The notes beneath the pieces are model-generated. The model did no database searches. It saw only the letters and a program-made list of their open reading frames with translations, and was not told the DNA's origin. DNA of 64,000 bases from a virus. Shown in pieces: positions 9,069-39,591 of the stretch. The translations under genes and the position numbers were made by a program. The stretch covers positions 1-64,000 of IMG/VR virus record IMGVR_UViG_3300031251_000007. The stretch is one strand, 5' to 3'. The number at the start of each line of letters is the position of its first letter. Positions within the stretch are counted from its first letter, which is position 1.

Positions 9069-9092
9069 ACGCAAGCCCTCGTAAACCCTTGC

Positions 9093-20670: not shown

Positions 20671-20996
20671 GCGCCGAGCGTCGCAATTCTTCCGTGGTGG
20701 TGGAGTCGCTCGTCAACGATGACCAAGAGCCTCTCGTTCAGGTCACATTCACGCGTGAAGGCGTTGGCACCGTAGTCCAGCTGACCGTCGCCGAGGCGAA
20801 GCGCACCGGCATGGACTTCCTTGAGGTGGCGATCGCCGCCGAGTCCGACGCGGCGGTGCTGCAGACGCTCTTTCACGACGCGCGCGGCGTGACCGAGGAG
20901 CAGGCCATGCACGTGCTGCGCGGGATTCGCCGCCGCCGCAATACCCCGATCGCCTTGGCGGTCGACAACAAGCCGAAATGCGGAGTGCCGTCGTGA
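20667..20996 (+). CDS. hypothetical protein
   Basis: Coupled ORF. Confidence 0.6.
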   Translation: MSAERRNSSVVVESLVNDDQEPLVQVTFTREGVGTVVQLTVAEAKRTGMDFLEVAIAAESDAAVLQTLFHDARGVTEEQAMHVLRGIRRRRNTPIALAVDNKPKCGVPS

Positions 20997-21177
20997 ACGA
21001 ATCGCATGCATCAGCGCGGAGGGCGCGGGGCGTACAGATGGCGAGGCCCCGGCGCCGTCTCAGTGGGGGCGTACGTAACAGGATGTATCCGGCTCATCGC
21101 TCTGGGTGTCTTCGGATCTCATGTGCCGAGGGGAATCCGGGATGCTGGCAAACCGGTCGCACCCTCCGCGGTGATGC

Positions 21178-21870
21178 ATGAGCAAGCGCCCGCAGAACGA
21201 AGAAGCAACCGGCTCGTTCATAGACGATCTCGACCCGGGCATCCGCGATACGGTCATGCTGCTGCGCGACCGAGGCTTCGAGACCACCGATTCGGGCGAC
21301 GGCCAGAGCAAGGACGGCTGCGGCGTCGCTGACGATAACGGCGTCGTGCATCACCTCGCCTTTCCGCACGTCGCGGCGAAGACGACCTGTCCGCATCTGT
21401 TCGAAGACGCCAAGCGGATGCAGGCGCTGCTGCGTGAGCACGGGCCCGACGGGCTCTCCGACTGGAGTGTCGAAGGAACATTCAGCCCGGACGGTGGTTG
21501 CACACTGTTCGCGCGAGCCAACCCGCCGGACATGTGGAACGCAATGCGCACCGCCATCTGGCGCGCAATCAAGCTCTATGCGGTCGCCAACGCCGAACCG
21601 CTTCGATCCACTTGCGCCGAAGAGGTGGACCGACTGCTGACGTGGCTTGTCATCGACATCGCGCTCCAGACGATAGAGGACGTCCGGTTTCAGATCGCTG
21701 CGCACGTTGAGAAGTTCCGCGATCGGCACCATCCGGACGACGGACCAGCGCGCAACGCGCTCACCGAACTCGCCCTAGAGATCGAAGACGGAGCAGACTT
21801 CCGCGAGACTCGAGTGCTTGATCGAAACGGCTTCGACGTCAATGCGATCCGCCGAGAGGGGCGGCGATGA
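21178..21870 (+). CDS. hypothetical protein
   Basis: LDPGIRDTVMLLRDRGFETTDSGDG conserved-looking N-terminus; coupled to the methyltransferase. Confidence 0.6.
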   Translation: MSKRPQNEEATGSFIDDLDPGIRDTVMLLRDRGFETTDSGDGQSKDGCGVADDNGVVHHLAFPHVAAKTTCPHLFEDAKRMQALLREHGPDGLSDWSVEGTFSPDGGCTLFARANPPDMWNAMRTAIWRAIKLYAVANAEPLRSTCAEEVDRLLTWLVIDIALQTIEDVRFQIAAHVEKFRDRHHPDDGPARNALTELALEIEDGADFRETRVLDRNGFDVNAIRREGRR

Positions 21871-23906
21871 GCGATCGTCAGCCCACAGCACTCCATCTCT
21901 TCTGCGGCGTCGGCGGCGCCGCGCTCGGCTATCAGCGCGCAGGCTTCACTTCGGTCGGCGCCTTCGACATCGACGCGCTCGCCTGCAAGGCGTTTGACTA
22001 CCTGACGGGTGAGAAGGCGACGCAGGCCGACCTCTTCGCGATGTCGCCAGCCGATCTCCGCAACGCGTGCACCGGCCGCCCCGACGTCGTCTTCACCTCG
22101 CCGCCGTGCAAGCCGCATAGCCGCTGCCTGCCGCAAGCGAAGTCCGAAGAGCCCGAGTACGTCGCCATGGCCGCGGTCGCGCTGCACTCTATCTGGCTGG
22201 TGCTCGAAGCCTGGGAGACACCGCCGCCGCTGATCCTGCTGGAGAACGTGCCCGGCATGCTCTCGCGCGGCAAAGACTGGATGCGCCACATCAAGGCGCT
22301 GCTGCGCTCCTACGGCTACGCGATCAAGGACGACCCGCACGACTGCGGCCAGCTAGGCGGCCTCGCGCAGCGCCGCAAGCGCGTGCTGCTCGCCGCGCGC
22401 CACATGGAGCAGGTGAAGGCGCATCTGCGTTTGCCGCCGCTTCAGCGCCTGCGCGGCGTCGGTGAAGTACTCGGCCAGCTGCCGGTGCCGCTGCCCGGCT
22501 CGAAAGAGGGCGGCCGCATGCACCGCCTGCCGCGAATGAGCGCCATGAACTGGGTGCGCCTGGCGCTCATTCCGGCCGGCGGTGACTGGCGCGACCTGCC
22601 GCCAGCTGTCGCGATCAACGGCGGTCCCGATCGCCACCATGGCGGGTACGGCGTCAACGACTGGGACGAGCCGAGCAAGACGGTCGTCGGCGCCGCCGAG
22701 CCGCGCAACAAGCCGGTGTCGATCGCCGACCCGCGTCTCGGCGATCGCGCCGGCCGGCAGAACGGCGGCTTCGGGGTCAATGAGTGGCCCGAGCCGAGTC
22801 ACGCCGTGTTGGCCGAGGGCACGGTGCGCAACACCTGGGCGAGCGTCGAAGATCCGCGGGTCAACGCGAGCCCTGATCGGCACACGAGCGGCCTCGGTAT
22901 CAACGAGTGGAAAGAGCCGGCGCGCACGGTGGTCGCGAAGGGACGCGTGCGCAGCGCGCGCTACTCGGTCCAAGATCCTCGTCTCTCCGACAAGGCGCGA
23001 CACAACTCGCAGTATGGCCTCGGCGATTGGGGCGAGCCGGCGCAGACGATCACGGCGAGCGCGCGCTTCGGCGGCGGCTGGTCGGCGATCGCTGATCCGC
23101 GCCTGGCGTCGACGCCGCGCAGCGACAGTTACGGCGTGGGCGGCTGGGACGATCCGGCGCACACGGTGCTCGCATCGGAGAGCCACGACAACAGCCGCGC
23201 GTCGGTTGCTGATCCTCGCATTGAGAAGCAGCGCCGCGAGGGCGCCGTCGGCGTCACCGGATGGGAGGAGCCGTCCACGACCGTCATCGGGCGGGCCATG
23301 GTGCAGAACGGGCCGTGGCAGGTCGCTGACCCCCGCCTCGGTCATCAGCCGCGCTCGGGCATCTTCCACGTCCAGGCCGGCGACGAGCCTTCGAACACGG
23401 TCATCGCCAGCGCGGGCAGCAAGACCGCTGGCGGCACGTTCGGCCTTGCCGATCCGCGCATCGATTACACGCCTCGTCCGGGCACGTATGGTGTCGTCGG
23501 TTGGGCTGAGCCGTCGCATGTCGTGCGCGCCAACTTTGCGCCGAACCGCGCTCCGTCGAGCGTTGCCGATCCGCGTATGCCCGAGATCGTCGGTCCCTCG
23601 ATCGACACGCAGAACAAACGACCTTGCTACCTGATCATCCAGGCGGCCGACGGCACCTGGCATCGGCCGATGACCACGCTGGAACTCGCGGCGCTACAGG
23701 GCTTGCCGATGATGGTCGACGGCAAATGGCTCGATCTGCCTGGCAACCACGAGCAGATGCGGGAGTTGATCGGCAACGCCGTTCCAGTGCCAGCGGCCGA
23801 AGCGATCGCACGCGCCTGCGCCGCCGCACTGCGCGAGGCCGGCGTCTTCACGCTGTCGAATGACGAGATCTGGGTCGCGCCGCCCGTTGAGGCGTTGAGC
23901 GTCTGA
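21867..23906 (+). CDS. DNA (cytosine-5) methyltransferase with eight internal ~40-aa repeats
   Basis: LFCGVGG, SPPCK, LENVP, Q.RKR, LAALQG, IGNAVP motifs; repeats G.G...W.EP..TV.......ADPR. Confidence 0.9.
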   Translation: MSDRQPTALHLFCGVGGAALGYQRAGFTSVGAFDIDALACKAFDYLTGEKATQADLFAMSPADLRNACTGRPDVVFTSPPCKPHSRCLPQAKSEEPEYVAMAAVALHSIWLVLEAWETPPPLILLENVPGMLSRGKDWMRHIKALLRSYGYAIKDDPHDCGQLGGLAQRRKRVLLAARHMEQVKAHLRLPPLQRLRGVGEVLGQLPVPLPGSKEGGRMHRLPRMSAMNWVRLALIPAGGDWRDLPPAVAINGGPDRHHGGYGVNDWDEPSKTVVGAAEPRNKPVSIADPRLGDRAGRQNGGFGVNEWPEPSHAVLAEGTVRNTWASVEDPRVNASPDRHTSGLGINEWKEPARTVVAKGRVRSARYSVQDPRLSDKARHNSQYGLGDWGEPAQTITASARFGGGWSAIADPRLASTPRSDSYGVGGWDDPAHTVLASESHDNSRASVADPRIEKQRREGAVGVTGWEEPSTTVIGRAMVQNGPWQVADPRLGHQPRSGIFHVQAGDEPSNTVIASAGSKTAGGTFGLADPRIDYTPRPGTYGVVGWAEPSHVVRANFAPNRAPSSVADPRMPEIVGPSIDTQNKRPCYLIIQAADGTWHRPMTTLELAALQGLPMMVDGKWLDLPGNHEQMRELIGNAVPVPAAEAIARACAAALREAGVFTLSNDEIWVAPPVEALSV

Positions 23907-23924
23907 TGCTGCTCGATCTTCAAA

Positions 23925-24065
23925 GGGAGCGCTGGCCGGGTGCTGATACACCCGACCAGCACCCTCCGACCACAGTCGTAGCCTGTGACCCTCGGGCCCA
24001 AGGCTCCCCCGCCTCGTACGAAGCGCGCGGACCCTATCGGCCCTCACTCCACGCGACAACAGGAG
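23925..24065 (+). ncRNA. structured leader upstream of the D12 adenine methylase (candidate D12-methyl RNA motif)
   Basis: Hairpin GCTGG-CCGGGTG CTGATA CACCCG-A-CCAGC and further stems in the ~165-bp intergenic gap; motif identity inferred from gene context only. Confidence 0.45.
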
Positions 24066-24070
24066 GGTCA

Positions 24071-24841
24071 ATGCGCAGTCCGATTCCATGGATGGGGAGC
24101 AAGCGGCGGTTGGCGGGGATGATCTTGGAACGACTGCCCGAGCATCGGTGCTTCGTGGAGGTCTTCGCCGGCAGTGCCGCGTTACTGTTCGCGCGCGACG
24201 AGGCCGCCGACGTTGAGGTGCTGAACGACATCGACGGGGACCTGGTGAACTTCTTTCGAGTGCTGAAGCATCACCTCGAAGAGTTCTGCCGCCAATTCAA
24301 ATACGCCATCGTCAGTCGGCAGATCTGGGAGTGGACCAAGGCCACTCCACCGGAGACGCTGACCGACATTCAGCGGGCGGCGCGGTTCTTCTACCTGCAG
24401 AAGCTCGGCTTTGGCGGGAAGCCCACCGGGCGCACGTTCGGCTACAGCCCGACGGCGCCGCCGAAACTCAACCTCGTGCGCCTCGAAGAGGATTGCTCGG
24501 CCGTGCACCTGCGCTTGTCGCGGGTCCTGATCGAACAACTCTCGTGGGAGAGCTGCCTCGATCGGTACGACCGGCCAACGACACTTTTCTTTCTCGATCC
24601 GCCATACTTCGAGACGGCCGGTTACGGCGGCGCGCGGTGGACGCGCGAGCAGTATGAGGCGATCGCCGTCGCGCTCCGAGCGATAGCCGGCAAGGCGCTA
24701 CTCACCGTCAACGACCATCCGGTGATGCGCCAGGTGTTCGCAGCATTCCCGCTCGAGCGCGTCGCGCTGAAGTACACGGTGGCTCGGGCCAGGGGTGACC
24801 GACCCAGCAGCGGTGAGTTGCTGATTCGGACGTGGAAGTGA
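24071..24841 (+). CDS. D12-class DNA adenine methyltransferase (Dam-like)
   Basis: PWMGSKRRLA, FVEVFAGSAA, NDIDGDLVNFF, FFLDPPY; RBS AGGAGG. Confidence 0.92.
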   Translation: MRSPIPWMGSKRRLAGMILERLPEHRCFVEVFAGSAALLFARDEAADVEVLNDIDGDLVNFFRVLKHHLEEFCRQFKYAIVSRQIWEWTKATPPETLTDIQRAARFFYLQKLGFGGKPTGRTFGYSPTAPPKLNLVRLEEDCSAVHLRLSRVLIEQLSWESCLDRYDRPTTLFFLDPPYFETAGYGGARWTREQYEAIAVALRAIAGKALLTVNDHPVMRQVFAAFPLERVALKYTVARARGDRPSSGELLIRTWK

Positions 24842-24851
24842 GGAGGAGTAC

Positions 24852-25466
24852 GTGAGCGACGAATCTGCCTCACGCGCCATCACCATCGTCACCGGCCTCG
24901 GCCGCTGCGGCAGCTCACTCGTCATGCGCATGCTGCACCGCGGCGGCATGCCGGTCGTTGCCGACGACTTCGCCTCCTACGAAGATCTCCGCGTCACGCT
25001 TCTTCCGGCGCATGCCGAGTGGCTGCCTGAATGCGTAGGCAAGGCACTGAAGATCCTCGATCCGCACGAGCACCTGTTGCCCTCGGCAATCTACGCCTAT
25101 CGCTTCCTGTGGTTGACTCGCGATCTTCGAGAGCAGGCGCGCTCACAAGTGAAGTTCATCCGCGCCAACGGCTTCCGCATCGAGTCGCAGGCCTGGCGCT
25201 GGACGGAGCGTGGGCTCGCCAAAGACGTCAAGCGGAGCATCGACGTCCTGCAATCGCGGTATCAGTCGTCCACGCTGCTGCCGATCCGCTTCGAGCATCT
25301 GCTTGCCCAGCCTGGGGCCGAGGCGCGCCGCATCGCTGAGTTCTGCGGCCTAGCGCCTGAGCGCGCGCCGATCATGGCCGCCTGCGTGAAACAGCGCACG
25401 CCGAAGTGCCTGCCGTACCTCATGGAGTACGAGATCGTGGCCGAAGAGGAAGCCGCTCGTGGGTAA
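24852..25466 (+). CDS. sulfotransferase-like P-loop protein
   Basis: IVTGLGRCGSSLVMRML (5'-PSB-like), WLTRDLREQARS (3'-PB-like), IRFEHLLAQP....RIAEFCG. Confidence 0.7.
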   Translation: MSDESASRAITIVTGLGRCGSSLVMRMLHRGGMPVVADDFASYEDLRVTLLPAHAEWLPECVGKALKILDPHEHLLPSAIYAYRFLWLTRDLREQARSQVKFIRANGFRIESQAWRWTERGLAKDVKRSIDVLQSRYQSSTLLPIRFEHLLAQPGAEARRIAEFCGLAPERAPIMAACVKQRTPKCLPYLMEYEIVAEEEAARG

Positions 25467-26013
25467 GGCGAGCCGCAGAAAGCGGGAACGCGAGCGCGCA
25501 AAGATGGACTTCGCCGTGTCGCGCTTCAACCTCGCGATGGACGCGCTCGCTGCCGATCCCTGCGAGACGTGCGCGTTTCGCGATCCGGAGGCGTGGATTG
25601 CCGATCCCGCCATCCCGCAAAAGCTCGCCGATGCGATGGCGCGCCACCAGCCGTTCTACTGTCACCAAGGGCTGGAGACGATCGACAACGTGTACCAGCC
25701 GGCGCCCGACCCCAGCACGATGAAGATGTGCGCGGGCTTCGCGCGGCTCTACCGGCGATTGGGCAGTCGGTCGGCGATAGAACAGTTGGCGGCGATTCGC
25801 GCGCTGCAGAGTGGTCTCTTGAAGCGGTACCTCACCACCGACGACGAGACGCCGAATCGTCTGCGCGGGCCTGGTGGTGTCGAAGCACTGGCCCAGGCGC
25901 TCGACGTCATGGCGGACCTACGCCGGCGGGGCATCGATCCTGAGACGCTAGACGAGCCGGACATCATCGCCGAGCTCGCGGCGGCAGAAAGTCGTGCGGG
26001 GGCTGTCCAATGA
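25459..26013 (+). CDS. hypothetical protein
   Basis: PCETCAFR...FYCH...CAGF Cys pattern. Confidence 0.6.
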   Translation: MGKASRRKRERERAKMDFAVSRFNLAMDALAADPCETCAFRDPEAWIADPAIPQKLADAMARHQPFYCHQGLETIDNVYQPAPDPSTMKMCAGFARLYRRLGSRSAIEQLAAIRALQSGLLKRYLTTDDETPNRLRGPGGVEALAQALDVMADLRRRGIDPETLDEPDIIAELAAAESRAGAVQ

Positions 26014-26711
26014 TCGAACGGCCGATCCTCTTCAGCGCGCCGATGGTCAAGGCGATCCTCGCCGGCACGAAGACGCAGACGCGGCGTGTGGTGAAGCCGC
26101 AGCCGGAGATGCTCAAGCCGCTCGGCCCGAACGGTACGCCGTGGCCCTACCGCGTCGGCCGGCCGATTGCCGATATGCCCTCGGCCCGTTTCCATGAGCC
26201 ATTTCGCTGCCCATACGGCGCGCCTGGCGATCACCTCTGGGTCCGCGAACACTATTTCGTCGCCGAGGTCACAGGCTGCGGGTCCGGTTATCCGTTCGTC
26301 GTGTTCGACGATGAATGGACGCAGGACGGGGGCGCGAAAGAGCCGTGCCCGACAAAGCTGCGCCCGATCACCGGCCAAAAGTGGGGCAGTCACGCCGGCT
26401 TTCATCTGCCACGCGCCGCGTCCCGCATCACGCTTGCCGTCGAATCGGTGCGCATCGAGCGCGTGCAGGACATCACCCTGGACGACGCCCGAGCCGAAGG
26501 TATTCCGCAGACCGCCGGCGAGGCTCAGGCACTAGGGCTGCATGATCTGACCAAGTCGCCAGGTCACGAGTGGGACAACCGAACGAGCGCCGAGAACTAT
26601 GCGCGCCTCTGGGATTCCATCAACGCCGCGCGGGGCTTCGGCTGGGATGCCAACCCCTGGGTTTGGGCGATCACGTTCCGTGTACTCGAGTCGAAGAGCG
26701 CAGCGGGCTGA
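26010..26711 (+). CDS. ASCH/PUA-like conserved phage protein
   Basis: ERPILFSAPMVKAILAGTKTQTRRVVKPQP...CPYG.PGD.LWVRE...RVQDIT..DARAEG...NPWVW. Confidence 0.8.
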   Translation: MIERPILFSAPMVKAILAGTKTQTRRVVKPQPEMLKPLGPNGTPWPYRVGRPIADMPSARFHEPFRCPYGAPGDHLWVREHYFVAEVTGCGSGYPFVVFDDEWTQDGGAKEPCPTKLRPITGQKWGSHAGFHLPRAASRITLAVESVRIERVQDITLDDARAEGIPQTAGEAQALGLHDLTKSPGHEWDNRTSAENYARLWDSINAARGFGWDANPWVWAITFRVLESKSAAG

Positions 26712-26732
26712 CCACCACTGAAGGAGACCGCC

Positions 26733-27227
26733 ATGCCATCGCCTCACATCGATCTGACGACAGTCCAGAGCAGCAACGTCGAAGCGGTCGGCTACGACGC
26801 CGCGACGCGGACGCTGCGCGTTCGCTTCAAAGGCGGCAAGGCGTACGACTATGCCGCCGTCCCTGCTGAGATCTATGCCGCACTGACGGGCGCCGCCTCG
26901 ATCGGCAGCTTTCTCGCCACGCAGATCAAAGGCACATACGTCGCCAGCCCGGTCGCCCCGGAGCCCGTGGCAGAGGCCGCCAAGCGATTCGTCAAGGCGT
27001 ACGTCGAGCACATCGAATCGGACGGCGCCGTGCGCCTGACGATAAACGCCGACATCGTGCGCGAGCTCGAGGCGCAGCCCGACGACTGCGAAGTGCACCT
27101 GCTGCTGGTGCAGCGTGACGGCAAGCCACTGGTCGACGTGCTCTATGACCGCGGCGCCGCGCCGTCCCTCAGCGTTGGCGGGTTGCAGTACCCCATGCCC
27201 AACCCCGATCCGCTCAGCCGCACATGA
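26733..27227 (+). CDS. KTSC domain protein
   Basis: VQSSNVEAVGYDAATRTLRVRFKGGKAYDYAAVPAEIYAALTGAASIGSF. Confidence 0.85.
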   Translation: MPSPHIDLTTVQSSNVEAVGYDAATRTLRVRFKGGKAYDYAAVPAEIYAALTGAASIGSFLATQIKGTYVASPVAPEPVAEAAKRFVKAYVEHIESDGAVRLTINADIVRELEAQPDDCEVHLLLVQRDGKPLVDVLYDRGAAPSLSVGGLQYPMPNPDPLSRT

Positions 27228-27290
27228 TGGGCGCACCGTGAGACCGAAGCGAGCCGCATTTCAGGGAGTACCGAATCGAGGAGCGCCCAG
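27213..27290 (+). repeat. upstream dual-repeat (TIGR-like) array, about 2 units
   Basis: CTCAGCCG cacatgatgg GCGCACCG tgagaccgaa GCGAGCCG catttcagg GAGTACCG aatcgagga GCGCCCAG. Confidence 0.7.
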
Positions 27291-27318
27291 AGTGCTGGGT
27301 GGTGAGGAGGACGCGGAG

Positions 27319-28158
27319 ATGGACGAGGCGCTGAGCGAAGACGAGCAACACGCGGTCGTGACACGGCTCCGGCGCGACGTCGCCGAAGCGGCGCGCACGA
27401 TGAACCAACGCGAGGGCGAGTATCTGGTGCGCGTCTATCACCAGCAACAGCGCCATCGCCTGGCGCTCGAAGCCCAGTTGCGCAGCCTCGGCGGCGCACC
27501 ATCGGCCACGCTCGGCTTTCTGGTGGAACAGGCGCGCACGCTTGAGGCGCAGGTGCGGCGATCGCTCGATCTCTGGACCCGCGATCATCCGCCCAGTCAG
27601 TGGGCGAGAGGGATTGTCGGAGTCGGCCCGGTCGTCACCGCCGAGCTCCGCGCGTACACGCACATCGAGCACTGCCCAACGGTCGGCCATCTCTGGGCGT
27701 TCGCCGGACTCGATCCGACCAAGACGTGGGAGAAGGGCCAGCGCCGGCCGTGGAATCCCGATTTCAAGCGCCTCGCGTTCATCTTGGGCGACAGCTTCAC
27801 CAAGGTGCGCGGCAAGCCGGGCGACATCTACGGCCAGGTCTATTTCGATCGGCGCGCCTACGAAGAGGCGAAGAATCTCGCCGGTGATTACGCCGAGCAG
27901 GCCGCGGCGAGTCTCGGGCGCGTCGGCAAAGAGACCGGCGCGCACAAGCATTACGCGGAGGGCCGCTTGCCGCCGGGGCGCATCTTCCTGCGCGCCAAAC
28001 GCTACGCGGTGAAATTGTTTCTCGCGCACTATCACCACGTCACCTACGTGCACGTGCACGGGACGGAGCCACCGCTGCCCTACCCCGTCGTGCATCTGGG
28101 CCATGCACACGTCTTCGCGCCGCCGGCGTTCAAGAAAACGGGCACCGAAGACGTGTGA
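27319..28158 (+). CDS. tasA: Nop-domain / IS110-related RNA-guided protein without nuclease domain (TasA-like)
   Basis: Coiled coil followed by GIVGVGPVVTAEL...TVGHLWAFAGLDP...RRPWNPDFK...IFLRAKRYAVKLFLAH; no N-terminal DEDD RuvC domain, no HNH, no IS110 catalytic SG after AGLDP; flanked by arrays. Confidence 0.8.
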   Translation: MDEALSEDEQHAVVTRLRRDVAEAARTMNQREGEYLVRVYHQQQRHRLALEAQLRSLGGAPSATLGFLVEQARTLEAQVRRSLDLWTRDHPPSQWARGIVGVGPVVTAELRAYTHIEHCPTVGHLWAFAGLDPTKTWEKGQRRPWNPDFKRLAFILGDSFTKVRGKPGDIYGQVYFDRRAYEEAKNLAGDYAEQAAASLGRVGKETGAHKHYAEGRLPPGRIFLRAKRYAVKLFLAHYHHVTYVHVHGTEPPLPYPVVHLGHAHVFAPPAFKKTGTEDV

Positions 28159-28166
28159 CGTTTCAC

Positions 28167-28438
28167 CTGAGCCGCATCAGCCGAGAGCACCGTGGTGTTG
28201 GAGCGATCCACACAGACAGGCAGTGAGCCGACATTCCGGGAGTACCGAGGTGTGGGAGCGAGCCGTCAACTGCGAGAGCACCGAGGAGGTTCAAGCGAGC
28301 CGATTACCCGAGGAGTACCGAAAGGAGGAGGCGAGCCGAATTGGATCTGGGAGCACCGTGGAGGTGGAGCGAGCCGATCGTTCTGGGAGCACCGTGGAGA
28401 GCGGGCGCACCGATCGCTGTGAGTACCGAAGAGGGGAT
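28167..28438 (+). repeat. TIGR-like array: about 7 units of alternating GCGAGCCG and GAGYACCG repeats with 8-12 nt spacers
   Basis: Period about 36 nt, e.g. GCGAGCCG tcaactgcga GAGCACCG aggaggttcaa GCGAGCCG attacccgag GAGTACCG aaaggaggag. Confidence 0.88.
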
Positions 28439-28443
28439 TCTGC

Positions 28444-28905
28444 ATGGGTAAGCGTCGGGGCAAAACCGATCACGTTCTATTCGGCGGCGCGATCGGTGAG
28501 GTGGCGCATTGCACGCGCTGCGGCGAGGGCTTGCGCATGGGCATGCCCGTATTGGTCGACGTGCTCGTGGCAGCAGGCAACGCGTTCGCGAAGGCGCACA
28601 AGAACTGCCCGGATACCGGCCGCGTCGAACCGGCACCAACGACACCTGGGGAGTGGATCGCCAGCCGCGATGTCGGCGTTAGTTCTGCAACGATCTGGTC
28701 GGTGATGACCGGCAAGCCGTCGCCGCTGGAGCGGTACAACACGCCGATGGACGAAGCCGACTTCGGCCGCTGCGATCGGCTGCTGGCGTTGTTTCCGGAA
28801 TGGCGTACGCGGCTGCACGAGGTCGCAGAGAAGTTTCCGGCGTGGCGATCCGTCGTTACGCGCTGGGAGGAACGCACCCCGCAAGCGGCCGGAGCGGACC
28901 GCTAG
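28444..28905 (+). CDS. hypothetical phage protein
   Basis: HCTRCG; W...RDVGVSSATIWSVM...P.DEADFGRC.RLL..FPEWR. Confidence 0.7.
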   Translation: MGKRRGKTDHVLFGGAIGEVAHCTRCGEGLRMGMPVLVDVLVAAGNAFAKAHKNCPDTGRVEPAPTTPGEWIASRDVGVSSATIWSVMTGKPSPLERYNTPMDEADFGRCDRLLALFPEWRTRLHEVAEKFPAWRSVVTRWEERTPQAAGADR

Positions 28906-28907
28906 CA

Positions 28908-29084
28908 ATGGCCGGCCGCTCTCAGTCTACCCAAGATCTGCGCAACGCGCTCGTTCGCGCCGACGAGCTGTTCTCGCTGCTCCGAGACTACTGGAACAAC
29001 GAGGACGACATCGGCGAGCTGATGCCGCGCATTCGAGAGTTTCAGGAAGAGGCACGAGCGATCCTCCGGAGGGAAACGACATGA
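28908..29084 (+). CDS. hypothetical protein
   Basis: 58-aa coupled ORF. Confidence 0.5.
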   Translation: MAGRSQSTQDLRNALVRADELFSLLRDYWNNEDDIGELMPRIREFQEEARAILRRETT

Positions 29085-29665
29085 ACATCGAATCGATCAC
29101 TATGGCTAAGCCCGACGCGCGCGCCGCCTTCGTCGAGTACCGCGACGCCTTGAAGGCCCGACACACGGCCGAAGACGAAGCGCTGATGCGCGGCTACAAG
29201 GCGCTCGCCAAGGGACAGCAGGTCATCGACCTGCACAACGTGATGCGCGCGGCTGGGCTCGACGAGGAAGGACGGCCGCGGCTGGCGATCTGTCGCGCAG
29301 ACATCGGATGGGTGCGCTTCCGTCGCTATGACAGGCGCTTTGAATTCAGCGACGCACCCGACACGTTCTGGGGCATCCAGAATCGCCATCGACGACTCTA
29401 CGTCGATCTACCGAAAGAGACGTGGCCCGACGACAAGCTTACGCGCCGCGACTGCCGCGCGATCGTCCCGCCGATCCCGCCGCGCTTCCGTCCCCAAGGA
29501 TCACTCAGCCGCTACCACATCCTGTGGGAAGCCGAGTGGCAGGACGTGCCGACCGATCCGCTGCTGCTCAGACACCTCGGCGGCGCGCTGTATGCGGTGC
29601 TGGCGCAATGGGACCTCTCCGCATTGGAAAGGGCCGTGCTGCGCGGCCGGCTCGGGGCGCGATGA
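29081..29665 (+). CDS. conserved hypothetical phage protein
   Basis: GRPRLAICRAD...AIVPPIPP...YHILWEAEW...DPLLLRHLGG.LYAVLAQWDL. Confidence 0.75.
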   Translation: MNIESITMAKPDARAAFVEYRDALKARHTAEDEALMRGYKALAKGQQVIDLHNVMRAAGLDEEGRPRLAICRADIGWVRFRRYDRRFEFSDAPDTFWGIQNRHRRLYVDLPKETWPDDKLTRRDCRAIVPPIPPRFRPQGSLSRYHILWEAEWQDVPTDPLLLRHLGGALYAVLAQWDLSALERAVLRGRLGAR

Positions 29666-29970
29666 ACGAGAGGCCAAAACGGGGCGCGGGGCCTAGGACA
29701 TCTCGCAGGGGGCCGCTGCTCGATCGGTTCTCGCAGCGAAGGCTCAAGGCGCTGGCCGATCGCTTCCATCAGGAGCGCATCGCCCTGGAGCATGCCCAAA
29801 CGCTGGCGCGCGCCGGATTCCTTTGCGGGTTCTCCGATCACGATCTCAGCATCCTATGGCGCGCCGGGTTCTTGTCGCTGCACGACCTCTTCATCTTGAA
29901 GCGCTCGTTCCGCAATGATCCGCGCACGACCATCCAGAGTGGCGCCAACCGGCGCAAGGCGCACCGATGA
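29662..29970 (+). CDS. hypothetical protein
   Basis: ATGA-coupled on both sides. Confidence 0.5.
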   Translation: MNERPKRGAGPRTSRRGPLLDRFSQRRLKALADRFHQERIALEHAQTLARAGFLCGFSDHDLSILWRAGFLSLHDLFILKRSFRNDPRTTIQSGANRRKAHR

Positions 29971-30179
29971 AACGGCGCACCGATCGCCAGCTCGTGGACA
30001 CCGCCAATGCGCTCGCGCGGCGCTTCTACGCGCGCATGGGCTATCAGGTACCCGAAGGGTATCGCTTCGATGAGGCGACCCATCCGCACGAGGTGATGTG
30101 CTGGGAGAACGCCGTCGACGCCTTCACCATCATCGCCGACGTGTCGGTCTACGACGCGCTGGCCAACATTGAGGACTAG
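29967..30179 (+). CDS. hypothetical protein
   Basis: Coupled 70-aa ORF. Confidence 0.55.
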   Translation: MKRRTDRQLVDTANALARRFYARMGYQVPEGYRFDEATHPHEVMCWENAVDAFTIIADVSVYDALANIED

Positions 30180-30275
30180 GCTCGGCGCCCCGCGTTTCGC
30201 TGGTTTTCGCGGTGGCGTTTGGCGCGCCCGGCGCTGGTGGGGGCCTCGTAGGGAGGCTCCCCGCCGGGCGGAGAA

Positions 30276-30542
30276 ATGGAGGAGACAATGCGAGGCGATT
30301 TGCGACTGACCGATTTGGGACCGCGCCGGACAGAGAGCAAGCTGATGAACACGAAGGTGCCTGAGAATGTGCTGCAGGCGATCGGGGCCGCGGCCGCCGA
30401 GCTCGGGTGCTCGAAGACGGATGTCATTGTGGCGCTGTTCAACGAAGGGCTGGATGTGTTCGAGGCCAAGCGGGCGGAGTTTGAGACGATTGGGGCGCCG
30501 AGGGTACGGCGGGGGCGGCCGCCGGTGGCGCGCGCGGAGTAG
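30276..30542 (+). CDS. RHH-like DNA-binding protein
   Basis: LMNTKVPENVLQAIGAAAAELGCSKTDVIVALFNEGL plus AT-hook-like RRGRPP. Confidence 0.6.
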   Translation: MEETMRGDLRLTDLGPRRTESKLMNTKVPENVLQAIGAAAAELGCSKTDVIVALFNEGLDVFEAKRAEFETIGAPRVRRGRPPVARAE

Positions 30543-30771
30543 TGGCGCTCACGATCAACGCCCAGCGTAGAACAGGCCGACGAACGTGACGGCGGCGATT
30601 GCCCAGATCAGCGGCGCGACAAGCTCGACGGCGCGGTCCTGGTCAAGGGTGACGGCGAGCTGGCGCAGCCGGCGGATGATCAACAACAGGTCTCGCATGC
30701 CAACCTTATGGGCGGCGCGCTTTTGATCGGTACGCCGTTGGTACATCGGCTCGATTTTCTTTGCGGCGGAG

Positions 30772-31134
30772 GTGGAGATGGCGGCGGCAGATGTGGCGGC
30801 GATCGCTGAGCAGATCCGCGCGCACGCCTATGCGTTCACCGACGAACGCGAGCTGCAGGACGGGCTTGCCATCGTCCTGGCCGACGTCGCCGGCCTGCAC
30901 CGCGAGCACAGTTTCAGCCCGCAGGACCGCATCGACTTCCTGCTTCCGGACGGCGTCGGCATCGAGGTGAAGATCGACGGCAGCCTGTCCGACCTGGCCC
31001 GCCAGGTGCACCGCTACGCGCAGCGCGAGGAGATCACGGCGCTGATCGTCGTCACCAACCGGCTGCGCCTGGCGGAGCTGCCTGAGACGATCAACGGCAA
31101 ACCGGTTGTGGTGGTGAAGGTAGGTGGATTGTGA
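30772..31134 (+). CDS. small PD-(D/E)XK nuclease-fold protein
   Basis: ERELQ...DRIDFL...GIEVK...QVHRYA; coupled to the helicase. Confidence 0.65.
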   Translation: MEMAAADVAAIAEQIRAHAYAFTDERELQDGLAIVLADVAGLHREHSFSPQDRIDFLLPDGVGIEVKIDGSLSDLARQVHRYAQREEITALIVVTNRLRLAELPETINGKPVVVVKVGGL

Positions 31135-32873
31135 GGACGTTCGGCACCGCAGAGCTGAAGGGCACAGAATGGGAGATCCGGTGCGAGCCGCACGTCGCCA
31201 TTCGGCTGAAGCGCATGTTCGGGAAGGCGCAGCGCGCCGGCGGCAAGGTGCGGCTCAGTGACACGATCGAAACGGCGCGCGACCTGCAATGGTTCTGCGA
31301 GCGCTTCCCGCTGGCGATCACGCCGCAGGAGCATCTGAACCGACGCGCCGCCGCGCACCGCGAGCGCGAGGCGACGGTCTCGGCGCTCCTGTCAGGTGAT
31401 TACGTCGCCCGCCCTTTCGAGCTGGCGATCCCAGCCCGCGACTACCAGAAGCTCGCAGCGGAGATGACGCTGCAGGTCCGCGGCCTGCTGCTCGCCGACG
31501 ACGTCGGCATTGGAAAGACCGCGTCGGCGATCTGCATGCTCACTGAGCCGGCGACCCGTCCGGCCCTCGTCGTCACGCTCACCCATCTGCCGCGGCAGTG
31601 GCAGGACGAGCTGCGCCGCTTCGCCCCTACCCTGCGCGTGCACATCGTGAAGACGGGCAAGCCCTACGATCTGGTCGGCGCACAGCGTGGGCTCTTTGGC
31701 GAGTTCCCCGACGTGATCGTGATCAACTACCACAAGCTTGCCGGCTGGGCCGACACGCTGGCGCCGCACATTCGCTCGATCGTCTTCGACGAGGTGCAGG
31801 AGTTGCGGCACCGCAAGACCGGCAACAAGCCCTCGCGGAAATACGAGGCGGCAAAGCATCTGGCGGAGAGCTGCACCTATCGACTCGGCCTCTCAGCCAC
31901 ACCGATTCACAACCTCGGCGGCGAGATGTGGTCGGTGCTCGATGTGCTGAACGAAGGCGCACTCGGCTCGTGGCCAGAGTTCTTGCGCGAATGGTGCGGC
32001 GACGGCGTCGACGACAAGGGGCGCGCGAAGATCAGCAATCCCAAAGCGTTCGGTTCCAGCCTGCGCGAGCAGGGCCTGATGCTCCGCCGCACGAGAGCGG
32101 ACGTCGGCCGTGAGCTGCCCGACTTGACCAAGATCGAGCACTACGTCGACGCCGACACGCGCGCGATCGATGCCGGCGAGTCAGCCGCAATGGAGCTGGC
32201 GCGCATCATCCTCGATCAGAACCCGCTCGCAAAAGGTGACAAGTGGAAGGCGTCTCACGAGTTGAACAGCATGCTGCGCCAGGTGACCGGCCTCGCGAAG
32301 GCGCCGTACGTCGCGGACTTCGTTCGGCTCTTAGTCGAGAACGGCGAGCGGGTCGTGCTCTACGGCTGGCACCGCGAGGTCTACAAGATCTGGATGGAGC
32401 GGCTGCGCGACTTGCAGCCGGCGATGTACACCGGATCGGAATCGCCGACGCAGAAGCTCGAGGCCAAGCGGCGGTTCGTCGACGGCGAGACGGACGTGCT
32501 GATCATGTCGCTACGTGCCGGCGCCGGGCTTGATGGCTTGCAGGGCTGCTGCCGCACCGTGGCGTTCGGCGAGCTCGACTGGTCGCCAGCCGTGCACGAG
32601 CAGGCGATCGGGCGCGTGCATCGCGACGGGCAAGGCGATCCGGTGGCAGCCTACTTCCTGATCGCCGACAGCAAGATCGACAAGGTGATAGCCGACACGC
32701 TGCAGGTGAAGAAGATCCAGATTCACGGGATACGTGATCCGGATGCAGCGTTGGTGGAGAGGCTGCAGGTGTCGCCGGATAACGTTAAACGGCTCGCGCG
32801 CTCGCTCTTAGAGCGCCGAGCTACGACATCGTCAGGGTCCGGATCCGTAGCTCTAGCGAACGATCGATGCTAG
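31131..32873 (+). CDS. SNF2-family helicase
   Basis: LADDVGIGKT, FDEVQ, LSATP, GAGLDGLQ, QAIGRVHRDGQ. Confidence 0.9.
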   Translation: MRTFGTAELKGTEWEIRCEPHVAIRLKRMFGKAQRAGGKVRLSDTIETARDLQWFCERFPLAITPQEHLNRRAAAHREREATVSALLSGDYVARPFELAIPARDYQKLAAEMTLQVRGLLLADDVGIGKTASAICMLTEPATRPALVVTLTHLPRQWQDELRRFAPTLRVHIVKTGKPYDLVGAQRGLFGEFPDVIVINYHKLAGWADTLAPHIRSIVFDEVQELRHRKTGNKPSRKYEAAKHLAESCTYRLGLSATPIHNLGGEMWSVLDVLNEGALGSWPEFLREWCGDGVDDKGRAKISNPKAFGSSLREQGLMLRRTRADVGRELPDLTKIEHYVDADTRAIDAGESAAMELARIILDQNPLAKGDKWKASHELNSMLRQVTGLAKAPYVADFVRLLVENGERVVLYGWHREVYKIWMERLRDLQPAMYTGSESPTQKLEAKRRFVDGETDVLIMSLRAGAGLDGLQGCCRTVAFGELDWSPAVHEQAIGRVHRDGQGDPVAAYFLIADSKIDKVIADTLQVKKIQIHGIRDPDAALVERLQVSPDNVKRLARSLLERRATTSSGSGSVALANDRC

Positions 32874-32882
32874 GATGGCCGA

Positions 32883-33314
32883 ATGAGTAAAACACTTGAG
32901 GACGGGATTGCCGCGTTGTTCGCCGATCTAGAAGCCGGTGACGAGCAGCGGCAGAAGGCCGCGCTTGAGGAAGAGAAGCTGCGCGAGGGCCGCGATCAGC
33001 TCTGCCGCACCGTGCTGTATCCGGTGCTACAGGCTGCCGCTCTCCTGGTCAGCAAGCGATTCCCGCAGGCGACCGTATCGTACGACTATTCGGCTAGCCG
33101 CGACCCTCGGATGACCCTGACATTGGATGCCACGCGATCGCTCCAGTACACACCAGGGGTGAAGCCGCAGCGTCGGCTCATTGTCTCAGGAACGGAACCG
33201 ACGAACATGCTCGATGCAGTGATAGCACTGCCGGACGATGCGGTAGGATTCGAAAAGCAGGTCGTTGCGGATCTCCGAGATCTTACAGAAGCGAAAAGAA
33301 AGGAACTGCCGTAG
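32883..33314 (+). CDS. hypothetical protein (lower GC, possible moron)
   Basis: 143-aa ORF with visibly more AT-rich codons. Confidence 0.55.
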   Translation: MSKTLEDGIAALFADLEAGDEQRQKAALEEEKLREGRDQLCRTVLYPVLQAAALLVSKRFPQATVSYDYSASRDPRMTLTLDATRSLQYTPGVKPQRRLIVSGTEPTNMLDAVIALPDDAVGFEKQVVADLRDLTEAKRKELP

Positions 33315-33382
33315 ATTTCGCAGGTCACGGGGGGCCGTGCACTTGAACCAGAGACGGCAGCCCTAACCGCCTCAGGCATCGC

Positions 33383-33601
33383 TCAGGGCAAGCCCTTCTC
33401 CATCGGCAGCACGTCGCTCTGCTCAACCCACCGGTGATCACAGTGCGAGCACCGCCGGTGGTAGTGCCCGTCGCCGCCGTACGCGTCCGCGCAGCGCCAG
33501 CAGAAGCCGACCGACGCCGGCGGTCCGCCTCCGCACTTCGGACAGCGGACGCGCATGTTCGAGAATGGCGGGAGCTTGGAGACATGGACGGAGCCGGGCA
33601 T
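33383..33601 (-). CDS. small zinc-ribbon protein
   Basis: CPKCG...CWRC...CSHCDHRW. Confidence 0.5.
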   Translation of the reverse strand: MPGSVHVSKLPPFSNMRVRCPKCGGGPPASVGFCWRCADAYGGDGHYHRRCSHCDHRWVEQSDVLPMEKGLP

Positions 33602-33663
33602 GGGCCGGCGCTCTAGCACATCTTGCTGGCGAGCGGTCTCGGCCGTCGCTACCGTAAGCCGGC

Positions 33664-34269
33664 GTGCCGCTCCCCCGCTTCATTCCGATCGCGCCCCGCA
33701 AGATCGCCGGCCCAGTTGATCACCCCGGCATGAGCTGGGAGCTGAAGCACGATGGATTCAGGGCGCTCCTCTATCTCGACCGCGGCCGCGCGCAATTCGC
33801 TTCGCGCCGCGACATCGTGCTCGCGCGGTTCCAGCCGCTGGCCGACCGGTTGGCAGAACACCTCGGGGCGATCTCGCTCGTCTTGGACGGCGAGCTGTGC
33901 GTGCTCGACGACGCCGGCCGCTCGCACTTTCGGGACCTGCTGCGGCGCGACGCGGTGCCCGTCTTCTACTGCTTCGACATCCTAATGCACGGCGAGGACG
34001 ACGTCCGCCGTGAACCGTTGACCGCGCGGCGTCGGCGTCTGGAAGATCTGCGCGGCCGCGCCCGCGAGTTAGTTATCGGCTCACACATTGTCGGTGACGG
34101 CATTGCCCTGTTCGGTGAAGTCTGCCGCGCCAACTGCGAGGGCATCGTCGGCAAGCCGCTCGAGTCGCCGTACGAGGCTGTTGGCGGCAAGAGTCCCTGG
34201 GTGAAGGTGTTGAATCCCGACTACACGCAAAAGCGCGGGCGGGCGGAGGCATTCAATCGGCGGCGGTGA
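33664..34269 (+). CDS. minimal ATP-dependent DNA ligase (adenylation domain only)
   Basis: ELKHDGFR (motif I), LDGEL, YCFDIL, EGIVGK..SPY, WVKV; no OB domain. Confidence 0.8.
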   Translation: MPLPRFIPIAPRKIAGPVDHPGMSWELKHDGFRALLYLDRGRAQFASRRDIVLARFQPLADRLAEHLGAISLVLDGELCVLDDAGRSHFRDLLRRDAVPVFYCFDILMHGEDDVRREPLTARRRRLEDLRGRARELVIGSHIVGDGIALFGEVCRANCEGIVGKPLESPYEAVGGKSPWVKVLNPDYTQKRGRAEAFNRRR

Positions 34270-34459
34270 GTTCACGAACGCGGCTGGCGCGCCGCCGTCT
34301 ACGCGCTACGCTGGCTCTGTGCCGAAGCGAGACGACCCAACCGACCGCGAGATTGCCGCCCTGCTCCGGGGTCCTCGCAAGCCATCGATCCGCAAGGAGC
34401 CGCGGCGGAATATGAAACGCGACGGCGACGGGCAGCGGTAGCGGCTCAGATTATAGCGC

Positions 34460-34487
34460 TTGACTTATATAGCGCACGCGCTATACT
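34460..34487 (+). promoter_or_regulatory. sigma70 promoter with overlapping palindromic operator for the TA operon
   Basis: TTGACT-16 bp-TATACT; palindrome TATAGCGC-AC-GCGCTATA at 34468-34485; ATG follows 6 bp after the -10 box (leaderless). Confidence 0.75.
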
Positions 34488-34493
34488 GCTCGC

Positions 34494-34859
34494 ATGGTTG
34501 AGGTGATCGTCACCCGCGAGTTCAAGGCCTGGTATCGCGGCATCACCGACACGGTCATTGACCAAGCGATCGACCGCGCCATCCTGTGGTTGGAGCGGTT
34601 CGGCGTCGCGCTCGGTCATCCTCAATCAAGCCAGGTGCTCGGCAGTCGCTATGCGATGCGTGAATTGCGCGTCAGCGCGAAGGGCCAGGCCATTCGCATT
34701 TTCTACATCTTCGATCCGCGCCGCCGCGCCGTGCTGCTGGTCGGCGCCATCAAGACCGGCGGCGCGCGCCGGTTCTACCGTGAGCACATCGCCCTGGCTG
34801 AGCAGAGCTACGAGACGTACTTGAAGGAGATCGATGATGGCGACGAAGAAGAAGACTAG
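34494..34859 (+). CDS. RelE/ParE-family toxin (HigB/Gp49-like)
   Basis: EFKAWY...LGHPQSSQVLGSRYAMRELRV...IRIFYIFDPRRRAVLLVG. Confidence 0.88.
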   Translation: MVEVIVTREFKAWYRGITDTVIDQAIDRAILWLERFGVALGHPQSSQVLGSRYAMRELRVSAKGQAIRIFYIFDPRRRAVLLVGAIKTGGARRFYREHIALAEQSYETYLKEIDDGDEEED

Positions 34860-35262: not shown

Positions 35263-35287
35263 AGTAACTGCGAAGCTGAGAAGCCCC

Positions 35288-35968: not shown

Positions 35969-36003
35969 CGCGCGGCGAGCCGTAACCCGCCGCGCCAGCG
36001 CTT

Positions 36004-36270: not shown

Positions 36271-36305
36271 CTTCCACCTCCGTTGTGGGCCTTGCGGCCG
36301 TTGAT

Positions 36306-38275: not shown

Positions 38276-38285
38276 CGTTTCGCCC

Positions 38286-39590: not shown

Positions 39591-39591
39591 C

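Follow-up and report, generated by a model that had tools for sequence, protein, structure and literature searches.

A tas gene between two repeat arrays in a soil phage genome

The locus lies in a window of 64,000 nucleotides, the whole stretch of viral DNA analysed here, in which tasA, a gene encoding a protein of 279 residues, stands between two arrays of short repeats, with two units upstream and seven units plus an orphan half-unit downstream, all on the same strand (Table 1). The gene and its motifs GVGPVVTAEL (aa 101-110) and LWAFAGLDP (aa 125-133), named in an earlier note made from the DNA letters, are present in the sequence, as are the dual-repeat, dual-spacer arrays that the note had placed on both sides of the gene. 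The sequence GGAGGA is found 7 nt 5' of the tasA ATG, and the database copy of the protein (P0001) starts nine codons earlier, at GTG 27292. Two repeat types alternate with a period of about 36 nt, an edge repeat, GCGAGCCG, and a loop repeat, GAG[C/T]ACCG. Both begin with G and end with CCG, the equivalents of box D and box C, and the 14 downstream repeats all fit the pattern G-N4-CC[A/G], 13 with CCG and one with CCA. The downstream repeats and spacers listed in the earlier note match the sequence, but the list omitted the orphan piece, and its spacer lengths of 8-12 nt included GA positions: in the protein family, repeats measure 10 nt (GA plus an 8-nt core) and spacers 8 nt.

The genome that carries the locus, 87,781 bp long with 66% G+C, is that of an uncultured soil phage from rhizosphere metagenomes, and it has a recognisable attachment-site core, a 44-nt tRNA-Arg(TCG) sequence. 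Pieces of tasA and of the arrays also occur in contigs from four other rhizosphere metagenome runs, possibly of one single sampling campaign; the array pieces in these runs show 0 differences, which excludes an assembly artefact. Rfam families gave no match at E ≤ 1 within positions 26900-28700, PADLOC returned no meaningful match, no Cas domains were found in the neighbouring genes, and RNA runs containing the stretch were sought, with none listed.

Table 1. Coordinates of tasA and of the two arrays in the window.
Feature	Coordinates	Strand	Description or basis
Upstream mini-array, 2 units	27216..27285	+	Sequence; family-specific motif chain
Upstream, first unit	27216-27220, 27221-27230, 27231-27238, 27239-27248	+	5'-truncated edge AGCCG, spacer, GCGCACCG in loop position, spacer
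Upstream, second unit	27249-27256, 27257-27265, 27266-27273, from 27274	+	Edge GCGAGCCG, spacer, loop GAGTACCG, spacer
Upstream, 3' end	27281-27285	+	Truncated edge GA-GCG
tasA	27319..28158	+	Solo-Nop TIGR-associated protein without a nuclease domain
Codons Y255 (28081-28083) to H262 (28102-28104)	28081..28104	+	Candidate catalytic pair, pre-tigRNA cleavage
Downstream array, T1-T7 and orphan piece	28167..28437	+	
Unit T1, 36 nt	28167..28202	+	Sequence; repeat families D1-D6
Parts of T1	28169-28174, 28175-28184, 28185-28192, 28193-28202	+	Truncated 5' edge GAGCCG, spacer A, loop GAGCACCG, spacer B
Orphan piece	28203..28222	+	Variant edge GCGATCCA plus 12 nt, without loop repeat or second spacer; member of the 14-repeat chain
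Units T2-T6	28223..28404	+	Sequence; chain detector; TRF
Edges of T2-T6	28223, 28258, 28295, 28331, 28369	+	
Loops of T2-T6	28240, 28276, 28313, 28351, 28387	+	
Terminal unit T7	28405..28437	+	Variant edge GCGCACCG, 8-nt spacer, loop GAGTACCG 28421-28428, purine-rich last spacer

TasA is related to Tas proteins and has no nuclease domain

TIGR-Tas systems were described in 2025 as having 36-nt guides bound by TasA, TasR or TasH proteins, with tandem spacers that target opposite strands (Faure 2025, PMC12045711), and a later catalogue comprises 20,096 tas loci and 6,685 arrays (Xu 2026, 10.64898/2026.09.09.750476). TasA of this phage passed the curated NCBIfam model NF052498.1 (TIGR_Tas_endo) with 158.1 bits against a cut-off of 100 (E 3.1e-46, aa 35-241) and matched phrog_4285 over its full length (E 1.1e-34). 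As a single sequence it retrieved TasR (9mty, E 4.5e-9) and TasH (E 3.1e-7) from the PDB. With the family profile, the comparison with Tas and IS110 proteins that the earlier note had proposed came out in favour of the former, at 4.4e-24 for 9mty and 4.3e-15 for TasH, against 1.4e-4 for IS621 and 2.6e-4 for ISCro4. Neither Pfam nor NCBIfam detected an HNH or RuvC nuclease domain, and the alignment with TasR begins at query residue 39 and TasR residue 123, indicating that the N-terminus of TasA is too short to hold a nuclease domain.

An hhalign comparison of the family alignment (A1) with the SpTasH coding sequence of Salicola phage CGphi29 (probability 98.3%, E 1.8e-14) placed Y255 on Y289 and H262 on H296, the residues named as catalytic in SpTasH in the account of PMC13421893. 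Y255 and H262 are invariant in 25/25 aligned relatives, and TasA retains all 43 family-invariant residues of this alignment. The assignment to the nuclease-less TasA type made in the earlier note is thus borne out by the curated model, the TasR and TasH homology, the Tyr/His pair and the missing nuclease domain. By sequence homology, TasA is predicted to adopt a Nop fold.

TaTasR (9mty) and SpTasH (PDB 21kl, 9w03 and others) share with TasA homologous coiled-coil and Nop regions and a Tyr/His pair in a C-terminal loop, but they carry an N-terminal RuvC or HNH nuclease and cut DNA, whereas TasA here has neither. MbTasA, as described in 10.64898/2026.09.09.750476, likewise lacks a nuclease and provides a published precedent for binding without cutting.

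The arrays exceed chance and recur beside related genes

The arrays were evaluated with a chain detector that joins G-N4-CC[A/G] repeats spaced 15-22 nt apart on both strands of the 87,781-bp genome. It returned one chain of at least 5 repeats, with 14 repeats at 28185-28428, and the longest chain in 100 shuffles had 8. A genome-wide search with the family-specific motif G[CA]G[ACT][AG]CCG returned chains of at least 3 repeats at the two arrays alone (11 repeats in one, 3 in the other), and 100 shuffles produced no chain of that length. TRF reported a period of 36 at 28324-28416, with 83-86% matches.

Of 4,918 candidates, 1,107 proteins belong to the TasA family at E ≤ 0.001. Chains of at least 5 repeats were present on the plus strand in 113 of 160 homologous loci and on the minus strand in 1 of 160, in line with the earlier note's expectation that homologous genes carry arrays, and a TRF row of period 35-37 was found in 118 of the 160. 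Arrays flank the gene on both sides in 19 of the 113 array-bearing loci. Of 12 neighbouring genes, none recurs in the 160 loci, suggesting that tasA and its array form a self-contained module. The proteins P0002-P0004 are relatives at 58-75% identity. When viral and metagenome contigs were scanned with the single protein, no relative appeared, and scans with the alignment found only relatives of at most 52% identity. Among known phages, megablast of positions 20000-40000 gave no match, and tblastn matched only Mycobacterium phage proteins (79 records, with identity no higher than 31% across 49% of the query).

The repeats themselves are typical of this family. Box C is CCA in the TasR consensus described by Faure 2025 (PMC12045711), and the earlier note had taken CCG as a possible sign of a divergent subtype. 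This idea fails because, among 100 non-duplicate related loci, 29 have at least 80% CCG, alongside 55 with at least 80% CCA and 16 that are mixed; moreover, GCGAGCCG, GAGCACCG and GAGTACCG, letter for letter as they occur here, rank with the family's commonest repeats. Both repeat types of this phage carry the same box C variant, CCG, and the description of Faure 2025 (PMC12045711) leads one to expect a shared variant for a symmetric dimer. Positions 2 and 5 of the edge repeat co-vary in the family (C-G 787, T-A 105, T-G 69, C-A 33), in agreement with the additional base pair of the edge repeat that is known from TasR arrays (Faure 2025, PMC12045711); counted by dominant pair per locus, C-G prevails (75 loci, with T-A in 8, T-G in 5 and C-A in 1), and this phage has C-G.

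On this sequence evidence, we conclude that the locus, on a phage genome of 87.8 kb, is very probably a TIGR-TasA system of the dual-repeat type. Like other dual-repeat TIGR-TasA loci, it is a phage-borne, single-protein module. By its description in PMC12045711, FpTIGR of Flavonifractor plautii shares the solo Nop-domain Tas protein, the two alternating repeats and the two spacers per unit of about 36 nt. Set against that description, the present locus has CCG and not CCA as box C, CCG being common in this protein family, and it shows units of 34-38 nt, eroded box D positions, skewed spacers and no terminator after the array.

Other classes of RNA-guided system were considered and rejected. 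An IS110-family RNA-guided recombinase would have an N-terminal DEDD RuvC-like domain, a C-terminal Tnp domain with a catalytic Ser, and a single bridge RNA. TasA has no DEDD domain, its only trace of that family in Pfam being a sub-threshold PF02371 piece. IS621 (8wt6), a bridge-RNA recombinase, shows distant homology to TasA in the Nop-like RNA-binding region (family profile E 1.4e-4), and IS110/IS621 elements combine a DEDD RuvC-like domain with a single bridge RNA, whereas the phage locus has neither and carries a guide array instead. A CRISPR-Cas system was discarded since two repeats of 8-10 nt alternate here around spacers of 7-10 nt, in place of a single repeat of 25-36 nt with spacers of comparable length, and Cas domains are absent from the neighbouring genes.

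An irregular array with skewed spacers

As a TIGR-TasA member the locus is ordinary, but its array stands out for its irregularity and its skewed base composition. Units measure 34 to 38 nt across both arrays (36 and about 34 nt for the two upstream units; 35, 37, 36, 38 and 36 nt for T2-T6). The 18-nt spacing between repeats is kept in 0.62 of the steps, the second lowest value of 88 arrays (median 0.99), and GA stands ahead of 5 of 14 repeats (0.36), again second lowest of the 88 (median 0.90). At the box D position, 6 of the 14 repeats carry G in place of A. T1 is the sole unit that combines the canonical length with GA ahead of both subsequent repeats, and T7 lacks a closing edge repeat. 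A fixed 36-nt guide is stressed as important for cleavage by the Tyr/His pair in the account of Xu 2026 (10.64898/2026.09.09.750476), and probably only some units of this array give fully functional guides.

These departures would suit a decaying system, a true TIGR-TasA by descent in which few or no units still yield working guides, and so would the orphan half-unit and the protein itself: of the 94 columns with a conservation of at least 90%, it deviates at 15, more than any other of the 120 sequences compared (median 3). These deviations include G109E, within the GxGPxxAxGL motif. We nevertheless regard decay as unlikely. The tasA reading frame is intact and keeps all the invariant residues and the Tyr/His pair, no downstream repeat has lost the G-N4-CC[A/G] pattern, and the sequence is identical in contigs of the four other runs. 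In addition, 10 of the 15 deviations also occur in P0002, a relative with 75% identity, indicating that the unusual substitutions are partly a lineage trait and suggesting a diverged lineage and not a dying gene. Finally, random erosion would not yield a spacer B with a single C among 56 positions when the genome has 66% G+C.

In spacer A, G occupies 9 of 56 positions. Across the family, spacer B shows a weaker plus skew, with a mean of +0.16, and in this phage adjacent units look like duplicates. The array might be read not as a varied collection of guides but as a few related units that multiplied by tandem duplication, drifted, and stayed tied to a single type of target, DNA of about 16-18 bp in which one strand is poor in G; we consider this reading quite unlikely.

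The arrays might alternatively act chiefly in cis, as RNA-processing elements that cut a polycistronic transcript and uncouple both tasA and the downstream gene from the operon in a form of autoregulation, targeting in trans being secondary or lost. The layout lends itself to such a role: no promoter-like or plus-strand terminator-like site was found in positions 25300-29800, the intergenic spaces are wholly filled by the arrays, the first upstream spacer takes in the stop codon (27225-27227) of the KTSC gene, the last spacer of T7 lies 6 nt ahead of ATG 28444 of the next gene, at the expected position of its ribosome-binding site, and the spacer B sequences are purine-rich and GGAGG-like. We nonetheless judge this role improbable, because seven different units exceed what cleavage in cis would need, GGAGG-like spacers also lie inside the array with no start codon after them, the arrays of relatives stand in unrelated contexts, as the absence of recurring neighbours illustrates, and the function given in the published descriptions is DNA binding in trans (Faure 2025, PMC12045711; Xu 2026, 10.64898/2026.09.09.750476). 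That the gene is no guide-system component at all, but the remnant of an IS110-family transposase beside unrelated repeats (iterons, REP-like elements or chance), is suggested by its sole Pfam match, PF02371 (Transposase IS116/IS110/IS902), and by the name 'transposase' given to relatives by PHROGs and some depositors, yet it has hardly any probability, since the match covers only aa 99-135 below threshold (17.5 against 21.3 bits), the E-values of the family profile for TasR and TasH are 10 to 20 orders of magnitude below those for IS621 and ISCro4, the DEDD domain is missing while the TIGR-Tas model is passed, and the same repeat words accompany relatives on the gene's strand so much more often than on the opposite one.

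Searches for targets of the guides

The earlier note had proposed a search for sites made of spacer A followed by the reverse complement of spacer B, and this returned none, either in the phage genome or in three genomes of the candidate host clade. For self-targets, T1-T7 and the second upstream unit were compared with all 87,781 bp of the genome after masking of the arrays; with gaps of 0-4 nt, the best site matched at 13 of 16 positions for every unit, and three control arrangements gave 12-14 of 16. The genomes G001-G003, selected as candidate members of the host clade by the 44-nt tRNA-Arg(TCG) core, are incomplete and may not be those of the host (G003 is unpublished). Exact sites for T1-T6, six of the nine units, with 8 nt of each spacer and gaps of 0-4 or 0-6 nt, gave 0 matches in G001-G003 in forward, reverse and control arrangements. 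TasA itself was found in 0 of these 3 genomes, and 401 genomes of the phylum of G003 yielded 1 marginal match (E 4.8e-4).

Several rules for the spacers were tried and set aside. Targeting of the anti-Shine-Dalgarno region at the 16S 3' end by spacer B, scanned in the last 100 nt of the 16S gene and 100 nt downstream at locus L164 of the unpublished genome G003, reached 9-12 of 16 at best, no better than controls. Guides laid over a ribosome-binding site and start codon (sense strand composed of B and the reverse complement of A) gave a plausible start, by eye, in at most 3 of 7 units. The other geometry, under which a stop codon with a Shine-Dalgarno sequence could be read in 6 of 8 units, clashes with the published 3' overhangs, and we consider this pattern-seeking. 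Complementarity between spacers A and B of the same unit, inspected by eye in T1-T4, was 5 of 8 in T1 and lower in the rest, giving no rule.

A possible mechanism and its implications

TasA is described as an RNA-guided repressor, as shown for MbTasA (Xu 2026, 10.64898/2026.09.09.750476), and a repressor mechanism in this phage seems to us more likely than not, though less certain than the identity of the locus. Its steps follow what has been published for FpTasA, TaTasR, SpTasH and MbTasA. Transcription of the surrounding plus-strand operon would take in the arrays, a dimer of TasA would bind the box C/D motifs, and Y255 and H262 would cleave within the edge repeats. Each resulting ribonucleoprotein would bind double-stranded DNA at a site of which one strand reads 5'-spacer A plus the reverse complement of spacer B-3', and, with no nuclease, would block transcription or another DNA transaction there without cutting. 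The natural targets would probably belong to the host or to competing mobile elements. The phage genome has a recognisable attachment-site core, so that the host and the targets of the guides could in principle be traced.

TIGR-Tas proteins are recently described, compact and motif-free RNA-guided DNA binders, whose natural targets, role in phages and way of gaining spacers are listed as open questions in the accounts of Faure 2025 (PMC12045711) and Xu 2026 (10.64898/2026.09.09.750476). The present locus contributes little to how the class is defined. Its irregular, duplicated and skewed array may, however, serve as a natural test of how far TasA tolerates deviations in box D and in unit length, and of whether TIGR arrays grow by duplication of units. 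If the array did arise by tandem duplication and drift and is tied to a single type of site, TasA would be the phage's fixed regulator of a set of related sites, TIGR arrays would have one way to grow without acquisition machinery, and the skew of spacer B across the family would suggest that TasA targets follow a general strand rule.

A Tas gene between two repeat arrays

The virus record is a single contig of 87,781 bp (66% G+C), of which the window covers the first 64 kb. Two repeat units lie within the 91 nt separating the stop codon of the KTSC-domain gene from the tasA ATG, and seven units and one orphan piece lie within the 285 nt between the tasA stop codon and the next ATG. The two 8-nt repeat words described in the earlier note, GCGAGCCG and GAG[C/T]ACCG, were both read in the sequence, together with three variants. 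We assigned GCGAGCCG as the edge repeat because its positions 2 and 5 are pairable and because the downstream array opens with its 3' part; published arrays likewise open with the 3' part of the edge repeat (PMC12045711).

Features of the tasA locus
Feature	Position	Strand	Remark
KTSC-domain gene (Pfam PF13619)	stop codon 27225-27227	+	precedes tasA
tasA ORF, 279 aa	27319-28158	+	GGAGGA 7 nt 5' of ATG
Variant repeat GCGATCCA	28203		
Variant repeat GTGAGCCG	28223		
Variant repeat GCGCACCG	28405 and 27231		
Gene after tasA	ATG 28444	+	

Repeats matching G-N4-CC[A/G] were chained at spacings of 15-22 nt over the whole genome, on either strand, with 100 shuffles as control. A single chain of at least five was found, comprising 14 repeats (28185-28428), and the longest chain among the shuffles had 8. 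A stricter motif, G[CA]G[ACT][AG]CCG, gave the upstream and downstream arrays as the only chains of at least three, and no such chain in any of the 100 shuffles. Both arrays are far beyond chance. Contigs from four other rhizosphere metagenome runs, possibly of one campaign, match parts of tasA and the array with no differences, indicating that the array is not an assembly artefact. The tasA frame is open for 68 codons 5' of the ATG, to GTG 27115 (27115-27318), a stretch that takes in the upstream mini-array and part of the KTSC gene; since relatives start near the ATG, this is probably chance in G+C-rich DNA.

TasA belongs to the Tas family and lacks a nuclease domain

Pfam gave only a sub-threshold match to the IS110 C-terminal domain (PF02371, 17.5 vs 21.3 bits, aa 99-135), and PHROGs a full-length match to phrog_4285 (E 1.1e-34), labelled 'transposase'. 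TasA passes the curated NCBIfam release 20 model NF052498.1 at 158.1 bits against a cut-off of 100 (E 3.1e-46, aa 35-241); the model is named 'TIGR-Tas system RNA-guided endonuclease'. In a single-sequence search of solved structures, TasA matched TaTasR (9mty, E 4.5e-9) and, at E 3.1e-7, SpTasH (21kl and seven further entries), and a profile of 25 relatives matched 9mty at 4.4e-24, TasH at 4.3e-15, IS621 at 1.4e-4 and ISCro4 at 2.6e-4. As this profile ranks TasR and TasH above IS621 and ISCro4, the family is Tas and the IS110 recombinases are distant kin. The alignment to TasR starts at residue 123 of TasR and residue 39 of the query, leaving no space for an N-terminal nuclease. The word 'endonuclease' in the model name misfits TasA, which has no nuclease domain. 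The 'transposase' label is also carried by relatives, in PHROGs and several phage records; both names are misleading for the TasA type.

SpTasH processes its own guide precursors through Y289 and H296 (PMC13421893). Aligning the family profile with the SpTasH gene from the Salicola phage CGphi29 record (98.3% probability, E 1.8e-14) placed Y255 and H262 of TasA on Y289 and H296, respectively; the two TasA residues are invariant across the 25-sequence family alignment. TasA is the most deviant of 120 aligned sequences, differing at 15 of the 94 columns conserved at 90% or more (median 3), with Y41H, G109E and H113Y among the changes, in a set picked by similarity to TasA, so that a diverged lineage will look deviant. 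In a relative with 75% identity, 10 such deviations occur, of which TasA shares 8. Three longer relatives outside the window (P0121, P0123 and P0124, 671-995 aa) contain Hint and LAGLIDADG domains (PF13403, PF14528) and hence inteins inserted in the Tas protein.

Most related loci carry same-strand arrays with the same repeats

The family comprises 1,107 proteins at E<=0.001 out of 4,918 candidates; the nearest relatives are P0002 and P0003 (75% identity) and P0004 (58%), and the others reach at most 54%. A relative is encoded in 488 of 537 pattern-matched viral-contig stretches and in 419 of 598 metagenome-contig stretches; the best 80 of each were used, giving 160 loci with 42-52% identity to TasA. 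A motif chain of at least five repeats lies on the gene's strand in 113 of these loci and on the opposite strand in one, and TRF, independently of motif chains, found a period of 35-37 in 118. Arrays are downstream only (63 loci), upstream only (30), on both sides (19) or overlapping the gene (1); none was detected in 47 loci, some of them short contigs. Array-bearing loci have a median of 18 repeats, the window 17 plus truncated ends.

Among 2,158 repeats from 100 loci, counted after dropping duplicate arrays, the commonest were GCGAGCCA (481), GCGAGCCG (306), GAGCACCA (165), GAGAACCA (133) and GAGCACCG (102): the relatives use the same repeat words as the window. Read in register, the family's repeats measure 10 nt (GA plus an 8-nt core), their spacers 8 nt and the period 36 nt. 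Edge positions 2 and 5 covary family-wide (C-G 787, T-A 105, T-G 69, C-A 33), the dominant pair per locus being C-G in 75, T-A in 8, T-G in 5 and C-A in 1. In the published description, both TIGR repeats have box D first and box C last, and UG/CCA may diverge but edge and loop co-vary (PMC12045711), with which the family structure agrees. Box C ends as CCG in at least 80% of repeats in 29 of 100 loci and as CCA in 55, with 16 mixed. Its last base is therefore not diagnostic, and the earlier note's suggestion of a divergent CCG subtype is unsupported.

The window array is irregular, skewed and partly duplicated

We compared 88 arrays, those of 87 relatives and that of the window, each having no fewer than four A and four B spacers (duplicate contigs retained). 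The window is second lowest both in its share of 18-nt repeat spacings (0.62; family median 0.99) and in GA preceding the repeats (5/14, 0.36; median 0.90). It has the highest spacer B G-C skew (+0.66; family mean +0.16), the highest difference between the skews of B and A (0.95; next 0.72) and the second highest pairwise identity of B spacers (0.37; family mean 0.28). Automatic sorting put the spacers after two variant edges on the B side, diluting rather than inflating the skew. Read by hand, the first 8 nt of the seven B spacers add up to 56 positions with 31 G and a single C; the A spacers, also seven, have 9 G. By TRF, the last three downstream units (T5-T7) show 83-86% matches to one another, against a median of 70% for the relatives' best row, which reaches 83% in just 3 of 118 loci; this similarity points to recent unit duplication. 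The deviant array and protein may reflect protein-repeat co-adaptation, erosion, or selection for G-poor target strands.

Across the 160 related loci, spacer B has a mild excess of G over C (mean skew +0.16) and spacer A has none (-0.02), an asymmetry of which the cited passages of the TIGR-Tas papers make no mention.

Genomic context, mechanism and targets

The same-strand neighbours of tasA are phage DNA-metabolism genes of a typical kind: a D12 adenine methyltransferase, a sulfotransferase-like gene, the KTSC protein, several proteins matching PHROGs of unknown function and an SNF2 helicase; no ParB-like gene adjoins tasA. None of 12 neighbouring genes recurs across the 160 related loci; gene and array therefore move as a self-contained module, as also in the published account (PMC12045711). 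A search of 25300-29800 revealed neither a sigma-70-like promoter nor a terminator-like site on the plus strand, from which we infer that the array and the operon are transcribed together. A truncated edge repeat and a terminator usually close published arrays (PMC12045711); by contrast, the window array continues directly into the ribosome-binding position of the next gene.

What was observed directly is the homology, the motif content and the gene-array association; the working steps that follow are drawn from the literature. A TasA dimer would bind the box C/D motifs of the transcript, Y255 and H262 would cleave inside the edge repeats to yield guides of ~36 nt, the two spacers of a guide would pair with opposite DNA strands, and the nuclease-less complex would block transcription or another DNA transaction. 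Reported cleavage leaves 8-nt 3' overhangs, with a cut at the fifth spacer position on each strand (PMC12045711). By our deduction, only base-pairing of every spacer with its strand's 3' half can give this outcome, and one strand of the target therefore runs 5'-spacer A + reverse complement of spacer B-3'.

No target was found in the phage genome, where the best match in this arrangement was 13/16, the same as for the three control arrangements. Two candidates prompted by the GGAGG-like B spacers, pairing of B spacers with the 16S 3' end and of guides with ribosome-binding sites (the latter checked by eye), failed against the controls.

In three MAGs of the species-genome collection, tRNA-Arg(TCG) genes have a 5' portion, running through the anticodon arm, that is identical to 48 nt of the window (9087-9134). 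This stretch probably represents the attP core, offering a lead to the host; with a 44-nt part of it as query, full tRNA-Arg genes were matched in only three species genomes among those scanned. The MAGs are an unclassified bacterium, one labelled Mycobacterium sp. and one Phycisphaerales; the tRNA-Arg flanks of the latter two are nearly identical, so one of them is possibly mis-binned. These MAGs contain no TasA and no exact targets for six of the nine units, results of little weight since none of the three need be the host. The sole tRNA found by ARAGORN in the window is tRNA-Trp(CCA) (11023-11093, minus strand).

The locus is real and was correctly recognised in the earlier note. It is a TIGR-TasA of the kind published in 2025 and already covered by a curated NCBI model; its interest is limited to the irregular, duplicated and skewed array and to a near-complete temperate-phage context for target hunting.
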